In this document: positions 2,757 to 3,540 of the stretch, one piece after another
Position numbering within the stretch: position 1 is the stretch's first letter
How the letters are laid out: each line of letters starts with the position of its first letter
Virus record (IMG/VR): IMGVR_UViG_2534682078_000015
DNA: 5,370 nt
Origin: a virus
Lineage: Duplodnaviria; Heunggongvirae; Uroviricota; Caudoviricetes
Strand: one strand, 5' to 3'
Position numbers and translations under genes: made by a program
Notes under the pieces: model-generated
Databases searched by the model: none
The model's input: only the letters and a program-made list of their open reading frames with translations
What the model was told of the DNA's origin: nothing

Positions 2757-3199
2757 TCGAAACCCTGCTGGATTTTTCGGGGCTGGAGGACATCAGCCGC
2801 GATTTGCAGCTTCTGAGTGGTGCAGAAAATAACCGGGTGCTGCGTGAGGCAACCCGTGCGGGTGCGAATGTGCTGAAAGAAGAAGTGGTGTCACGGGCAC
2901 CGGTACGCAGGGGAAAACTGCGCCGCAATGTGGTGGTCCTTTCCCGGCGCTCCCGCGATGGCGGGATGGAATCCGGTGTCCATATCCGTGGTGTTAATCC
3001 GGACACCGGTAACAGCGATAACACCATGAAGGCGGATAACCCGCGCAATGCTTTCTACTGGCGGTTTGTGGAAATGGGGACCGTGAATATGCCACCGCAC
3101 CCGTTTGTGCGCCCGGCATTTGATGTGCGCAGTGAACAGGCAGCGCAGGTGGCGATTGCTCGGATGAACCGGGCCATTGATGAGGTACTGAGACGATGA
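2753..3199 (+). CDS. HK97 gp10-like phage protein (head-tail joining / tail component)
   Basis: ATG 2753 overlaps the upstream stop (ATGA) and has GGGAGG upstream. The 148-aa product and its position match HK97 gp10-family proteins. Its stop overlaps the next start (ATGA at 3196-3199). Confidence 0.7.
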   Translation: MIETLLDFSGLEDISRDLQLLSGAENNRVLREATRAGANVLKEEVVSRAPVRRGKLRRNVVVLSRRSRDGGMESGVHIRGVNPDTGNSDNTMKADNPRNAFYWRFVEMGTVNMPPHPFVRPAFDVRSEQAAQVAIARMNRAIDEVLRR

Positions 3200-3540
3200 C
3201 GGAGGCGGATTTGTATCCTCATCTGGCGCATCTTGCCGGCGGGCAGGTGTACCCGTATGTCGGTCCCCCTGCTGGATGGCAGGCCGTCGGTGGCGCTTCC
3301 GTGGGTGGTTTTCAGCCTGATTTCATCGGTGTCTGCGGACGTGATGGGCGGGCAGGCGGAGTCCTCAGTGTCGGTGCAGATAGACGTTTATGCCGGGACT
3401 GTGACGCAGGCGCGTCAGATACGTCAGGACGCCCGTGAAGCCATAATGCTGCTGGCCCCGGATCCGTCAGTGAAATGCAGGACTATATTCCGGAAAACCG
3501 CTGTTACCGTGCAACCCTGGAGTTTCAGGTCACGGTGTGA
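3196..3540 (+). pseudogene. DUF3168-like tail completion protein gene, apparently disrupted by two frame changes (or sequencing errors)
   Basis: N-terminus in frame 1 (MTEADLYPHLAHLAGGQVYPYV) is protein-like and translationally coupled to the upstream gene. The rest of frame 1 becomes Gly/Arg-rich and stops at 3436-3438. The protein-like middle (PSVALPWVVFSLISSVSADVMGGQAESSVSVQIDVYAGTVTQARQIRQDAREAIM) is in frame 2. The family-typical C-terminus (MQDYIPENRCYRATLEFQVTV, stop 3538-3540) is back in frame 1. Candidate indel sites are homopolymers: C5 at 3265-3269, and C4 at 3456-3459 or A3 at 3473-3475. Confidence 0.55.

Follow-up and report, generated by a model that had tools for sequence, protein, structure and literature searches.

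The broken tail terminator gene of a BP-4795-like prophage contig from Escherichia coli 2534-86 is most likely a sequencing or assembly artefact

The stretch of DNA analysed here, referred to as the window, is 5,370 nucleotides long and corresponds in full to the 5,370-bp contig AFDS01000030.1 (assembly GCA_000225065.2, a draft genome of 2011). The AFDS01 accession belongs to E. coli 2534-86, a porcine enterotoxigenic strain (ETEC) (PMC4358887). The window is the morphogenesis module of a BP-4795-like lambdoid prophage, with the same gene order as phage BP-4795 and many Stx-converting phages. Its genes are the following.

To 618: C-terminus of the portal protein
688-2073: 461-aa repeat-containing protein
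2070-2396: head-tail connector
2406-2756: head closure protein
2753-3199: HK97-gp10-like protein
3196-3540, + strand: tail terminator gene, disrupted as written, collinear with WP_000133388.1 (E. coli E2863) and with BP-4795 ORF63
3607-4322: major tail protein
4328-4702, on to 5007: tail chaperones G and T
After the chaperones, to the end of the window: tape measure gene, start only

Apart from the portal and tail terminator genes, all genes of the contig are intact. The 461-aa open reading frame at 688-2073 has a tandem repeat at 913-1604, a 162-nt (54-aa) unit present 4.3 times with 92% identity, and matched no Pfam family. It is labelled 'portal protein' in phage records, and in O111 genomes RefSeq has merged it into a 'frameshifted/incomplete' pseudogene; substitutions relative to related sequences concentrate in this reading frame. 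Downstream of the tail terminator gene, the spacer before the major tail gene (3541-3592) contains T runs (T5 C T6) whose lengths differ among relatives, as well as a terminator-like hairpin at 3569-3589 (CCCGC-cgcgt-GCGGG, then T6) with a folding energy that is ordinary in comparison with shuffled sequence (z = -1.15).

Three-frame translation of the tail terminator gene showed that its protein-like sequence is divided between two frames. Frame 1, in the phase of position 3196, begins with MTEADLYPHLAHLAGGQVYPYV, continues into a Gly/Arg-rich stretch and stops at a TGA at 3436-3438, giving an 80-aa open reading frame. The middle of the protein is found in frame 2, which is open from 3233 to 3622 and reads VPLLDGRPSVALPWVVFSLISS...REAIMLLAP (VPLLDGRPSV...REAIMLLAP), after which frame 1 picks up again with SVSEMQDYIPENRCYRATLEFQVTV and the stop codon at 3538-3540. 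This 1-2-1 layout, together with the premature stop and the 80-aa product with its Gly/Arg-rich tail, had been described in the first-pass annotation of this DNA, and our translation confirmed it in full. Frame 2 also contains an ATG at 3257, 7 nt downstream of an AGGTG (3245-3249) resembling a Shine-Dalgarno sequence. Were the sequence correct as deposited, translation from this ATG could yield a truncated frame-2 product of 121 aa extending to 3622; the pairing of the AGGTG with the ATG is probably a coincidence. Look-ups of the exact products of the 80-aa frame-1 and 121-aa frame-2 reading frames returned none on record; this outcome carries no information, since the gene caller of the collection places no gene at 3199-3606 even in this contig.

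We compared the intact and deposited versions of the gene with protein family profiles. The intact or repaired protein matched Pfam PF11367 (Tail_completion_gp17, formerly DUF3168) with 32.4 bits, where the cut-off is 24.5. The frame-2 middle segment of the window alone scored 28.4 bits with the same family over profile positions 28-96, whereas the 80-aa frame-1 product matched no family in the Pfam scan. Since the middle segment passes the PF11367 gathering score by itself and the frame-1 product matches nothing, the frame pattern is not due to chance. PHROG 347 'tail terminator' was matched with E=2.1e-17, and PHROG 78, also 'tail terminator', was matched as well, in agreement with the earlier assignment of the gene to the DUF3168 tail completion family. 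The counterpart in BP-4795, ORF63, has 345 nt, occupies the same position and is annotated 'tail terminator', and the place of the gene in the operon, downstream of the HK97-gp10-like gene and directly upstream of the major tail protein gene, fits the family. Searched against PDB sequences and NCBIfam, the intact protein matched neither a solved structure nor an NCBIfam family, so that its family identity is based on Pfam and PHROGs, on synteny and on its annotation in RefSeq and BP-4795.

The gene is also abundant. A 541-nt query around it gave 2,912 matches in 1,245 of 5,426 complete E. coli genomes, with the module present in up to 8 copies per genome; the best matches were 99.4% identical and annotated as intact 'tail completion protein gp17'. 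In the full-length copies retrieved from IMG/VR and metagenome contigs, 155 of 156 carried an intact, single-frame open reading frame of 114 codons, and 117 of these 155 encoded exactly the protein of the repaired window gene. Apart from its lesions, the gene is thus nothing unusual: a tail terminator gene of high conservation in a BP-4795-like lambdoid prophage. It shares with the tail terminator family (the position of lambda gpU and SPP1 gp17) the PF11367 and PHROG 347/78 matches and, once repaired, is identical to WP_000133388.1; it differs from the family in that the deposited reading is broken by an early stop and spread across two frames. Members of the family would be expected to have a fold like that of gpU and SPP1 gp17, with the subunits in a ring that closes off the tail tube.

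To define the lesions exactly, we used the intact 345-nt gene of E. coli E2863 (WP_000133388.1; locus L001, 3297-3641) as the reference. Only two differences were found within the gene: an extra C at 3261 and one G missing at 3460-3461. At the first site, where the lesion-bearing version is TGTCGGTCCCCC and the intact version TGTGGTCCCCC, the extra base (TGT[C]GGTCCCCC) lies outside any homopolymer, four bases upstream of the C5 run at 3265-3269. At the second site (CCCCGG[G]ATCC), the window has CCCCGGATCC at 3456-3465 where the intact gene has CCCCGGGATCC, giving GG for GGG directly after the C4 run at 3456-3459. With C 3261 removed and one G added, no difference remained between the DNA and the intact gene in O111 prophages (100% identity). 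The resulting segments are listed below with the evidence for each.

3196-3260, + strand: N-terminal segment, right in frame 1, MTEADLYPHLAHLAGGQVYPYV (translation, alignment)
3261, + strand: extra C, TGT[C]GGT, moving the true frame from frame 1 to frame 2 (alignment)
3262-3459, + strand: middle segment, protein-like in frame 2 only (translation, PF11367)
3265-3269, + strand: C5 homopolymer, likely source of a ghost C (flow-space simulation)
3436-3438, + strand: TGA ending the frame-1 reading after 80 codons (translation)
3460-3461, + strand: GG run (GGG in intact homologues), moving the true frame from frame 2 back to frame 1 (alignment)
3462-3540, + strand: C-terminal segment, right in frame 1, SVSEMQDYIPENRCYRATLEFQVTV and stop codon (translation, alignment)

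The intact homologues match the 1-2-1 mosaic and do not follow frame 1 throughout. Alignment to homologues had been proposed in the first-pass annotation as the way to locate the junctions, and it placed them at 3261 and 3460-3461. This altered part of the earlier description, in which both switch points were homopolymers: the second is indeed in a homopolymer, the GGG run, but the first is in no run at all. The first switch had been assigned to the C5 run at 3265-3269, four bases downstream of where the extra base in fact lies, and the second to 3456-3459 or 3473-3475 instead of the G run at 3460-3461.

We searched for each lesion separately in other genomes. For the extra C we used a 41-nt query centred on 3261, so that every 28-nt seed includes the extra base, and found it in none of the 5,426 complete E. 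coli genomes. The corresponding 31-mer was absent from IMG/VR, from metagenome contigs and from GTDB species genomes, while the intact 30-mer was found in 116 viral and 70 metagenome contigs. The loss of one G from GGG was likewise absent from IMG/VR and was detected in 6 of the 5,426 complete genomes. Four of these six were inspected (NZ_CP024618.1, NZ_CP104649.1, NZ_CP060057.1 and NZ_CP058682.2; loci L005-L008). All four had further deletions of homopolymer type in the gp17 gene, and three had the label 'frameshifted' on the neighbouring HK97-gp10 gene and/or the major tail gene as well. Because the inspected genomes with the GG form carry added frameshifts, the site is a recurrent miscall site in error-prone assemblies. 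This suggests that these RefSeq 'complete' genomes are unpolished long-read assemblies in which prophage genes have been mis-annotated as pseudogenes.

These distributions bear on the possibility that the sequence is right and that the wild-type 114-aa protein is produced by recoding, through a +1 shift after GTC (3259-3261) followed by a -1 P-site slip at C_CCC_G (3456-3460). Skipping of G3262 and slipping back at CCG would in principle restore the exact wild-type amino acids, and frame 2 is open across the whole interval (3233-3622). If this were true, a gene of 345 nt would contain two frameshifts, which has no precedent, and the tail terminator would be made at a low level. However, neither site, read in the incoming frame (TAT GTC GGT at the first, GCC CCG GAT at the second), has a slippery heptamer or a known +1 motif, and the tRNA-Val reading GUC has no +1 re-pairing on UCG. 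Ribosomes that stay in frame 1 halt at 3436-3438, ahead of the second site. In addition, programmed sites are conserved, yet the site with the extra C was found in no homologue searched and the GG form only in six error-laden assemblies, while thousands of homologous copies encode the protein in a single frame. We consider recoding of this kind extremely improbable. The same ranking had been reached in the first-pass annotation, where a double programmed frameshift was judged the least likely option, and the missing slippery motif and missing conservation bear this out. Programmed or transcriptional slippage as a class was rejected on the same grounds, with no slippery heptamer, no long A or T run and no conservation.

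A genuine frameshift site is present in the same operon. The window has a canonical -1 site, an in-phase A_AAA_AAG at 4693-4699. It lies one codon ahead of the TAG that closes gene G (4328-4702), and the T frame, in -1, runs open from 4699 to 5007, an arrangement of the lambda G/GT type. The tail terminator gene resembles the lambda G/GT system in having a change of frame in a small tail gene of the same operon, with the true example lying 1.2 kb downstream. It differs from it in that the gp17 sites are without a heptamer, two opposite shifts would be needed, and the arrangement is conserved in no homologue.

We then considered the type of change that separates the window from its closest relatives. 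Across 2750-3750 there were 0 substitutions and 3 single-base indels, at 3261, at 3460 and in the T run at 3547. The 87-92 substitutions of the contig all cluster outside this interval, in mosaic segments. Spontaneous indels in E. coli are about ten times rarer than substitutions, making up about a tenth of mutations. With this share, the probability that three of three events are indels would be approximately 0.001 under natural divergence. Pyrosequencing error typically leaves an indel-only profile of this kind, which natural divergence seldom does.

This pattern has to be set against the possibility that one or both lesions are real and that the prophage of strain 2534-86 has a true tail terminator pseudogene, with one inactivating frameshift and a second, neutral one. 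The deposited sequence does read as frame-broken, and the portal gene of the same contig is frame-broken too, which would suit a decaying cryptic prophage; in related O111 prophages a neighbouring gene is annotated as a pseudogene. E. coli often carries defective lambdoid prophages whose structural genes have decayed. The locus resembles such prophages in having a frame-broken virion gene with a second broken gene, the portal, nearby. However, real decay is normally accompanied by substitutions, larger deletions or IS insertions and is common to clonal relatives, whereas here single-base indels only are found, in one contig only, in DNA that is otherwise identical. The 0 substitutions and 3 indels in the surrounding 1 kb would have a probability of about 0.001 if produced by real mutation, the extra C is found in no other sequence among thousands of copies, and the only other assemblies with the GG loss are error-laden ones. 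The contig's other genes are unbroken and hardly differ from their counterparts in functional phages, and the likely sequencing platform (454, judging from neighbouring accessions) has exactly such an error profile. The earlier proposal had been slipped-strand inactivation or homopolymer sequencing error; of the two, sequencing error is the one we favour, and slippage fails for C 3261. The C5 run was rejected as the place of a slipped-strand event at the first switch, since the alignment places the extra base unambiguously at 3261, and slipped-strand mispairing cannot explain a lesion that lies outside any run. We therefore regard a genuine pseudogene as the main rival reading, though an unlikely one, at something like one chance in five. 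In lambda, U mutants have tails that are not correctly terminated and do not join heads, and by analogy the prophage of strain 2534-86 would be expected to be tail-defective if the lesions were real.

The portal gene is the second broken gene of the contig. At the C-terminus of the portal gene (region 580-691), a variable stretch has 27 nt in the window and 29 nt in 108 of 108 relatives at the fetched loci, which represent 12 alleles. As a result of the 27-nt stretch, the portal reading frame stops at 618 and not at the ATGA stop/start overlap at 688-691. The lesions are at approximately 594 and 604, and none of the 5,426 complete E. coli genomes contains the 41-mer covering 580-620. At the junction, two known alleles seem to have been fused into a hybrid, with a loss of 2 nt where they join. 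This suggests that the consensus was drawn from more than one prophage copy, and the portal lesion is probably another consensus error or a collapsed-repeat chimera.

There is a variant of the artefact explanation for the tail terminator gene itself, in which the consensus is a chimera of at least two diverged prophage copies and the indels arose from misaligned reads and not from flow miscalls. It is favoured by the small size of the contig (5,370 bp, stand-alone), by the up to 8 copies of the module per genome in complete E. coli genomes and by the portal junction with its 2 nt lost at the joins of two known alleles. Around gp17, however, there are 0 substitutions relative to one known allele, so no mixing of alleles is seen there, and a fit in flow space explains the gp17 lesions without chimerism. 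We would give this variant about one chance in four.

How assembly AFDS/GCA_000225065 was made is described in no paper that our literature search found. The neighbouring accessions AFDQ, AFDR and AFDU-AFEA came from one centre and were produced from 3-kb paired-end libraries by 454 Titanium FLX sequencing and assembly with Celera 6.0 (PMC3491183). AFDS itself was probably made by 454 and Celera as well, judging from these neighbours. We simulated the sequence around C 3261 in flow space with the 454 flow order TACG. In the forward direction the intact sequence gives T1 A0 C0 G2 T1 A0 C5 and the window T1 A0 C1 G2 T1 A0 C5; in the reverse direction G5 T0 A1 C2 G0 of the intact sequence becomes G5 T0 A1 C2 G1 in the window. 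The extra C thus alters one flow value only, which goes from 0 to 1 and leaves the register unchanged; on either strand this flow is exactly 4 flows away from the C5/G5 run. Of 776 possible non-homopolymer insertions in the gene, just 3 behave in this way on both strands. This explanation was devised after the lesion had been seen, and the simulation gives it support and not proof.

The steps by which such errors may have arisen can be outlined from the flow patterns. At 3460-3461, an undercall of the homopolymer would account for the missing G, C4 G3 having been taken for C4 G2. For the extra C at 3261, an empty C flow one TACG cycle before the C5 would have been called 1 in forward reads (carry-forward), and an empty G flow one cycle after the G5 would have been called 1 in reverse reads (incomplete extension). 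Templates running ahead in the forward direction, or lagging in the reverse, would give a five-fold signal at that flow. A ghost signal from the nearby C5 run can in this way account for C 3261. The consensus may also be a collapsed mixture of prophage copies, as the contig is short and stands alone and the module is often multi-copy.

The lesions resemble known 454 indel artefacts in several respects: they are indels only, one is a C4-G3 undercall, and the other is a 0 to 1 flow one cycle from a 5-mer of the same base. The sister assemblies are documented as 454 Titanium and Celera, and AFDS itself probably came from the same platform. The comparison also has a point of difference. The window has 4-5 consensus indels in 5.4 kb, which is high for a normally covered 454 assembly and above what is usual in a well-covered unique region. 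Because of this error density, an artefact reading needs the added assumption of low coverage or a collapsed repeat. Assemblers yield a poor consensus under such circumstances, and a short stand-alone contig carrying a module with up to 8 copies per genome would be a case of this kind.

Together, these results suggest that both frame changes are pyrosequencing or assembly artefacts and not features of the DNA, a reading to which we assign a probability of roughly 0.77, judged from the consensus sequence. The exact lesions, their absence from the other sequences searched, the indel-only differences and the geometry in flow space are observations, while the platform of this assembly and the mechanism of the error are inferred. 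The broken frame of the tail terminator gene is most likely not a real feature of the prophage.

The analysis carries a warning for the use of draft genomes, in that short stand-alone contigs of the 454 era can hold indel errors that mimic pseudogenes or exotic recoding. Such errors are not confined to homopolymers, since ghost-flow insertions fall a few bases off the run. Indels without substitutions relative to close relatives, combined with a single-flow change near a long run, provide a screen that can be applied before biological interpretation. The biological weight of the finding is small. If the lesions are artefacts, the contig encodes a normal tail terminator, identical to that in many lambdoid prophages, Stx-type ones included; real lesions would add another defective gene to those known from prophages, here in a porcine ETEC strain.
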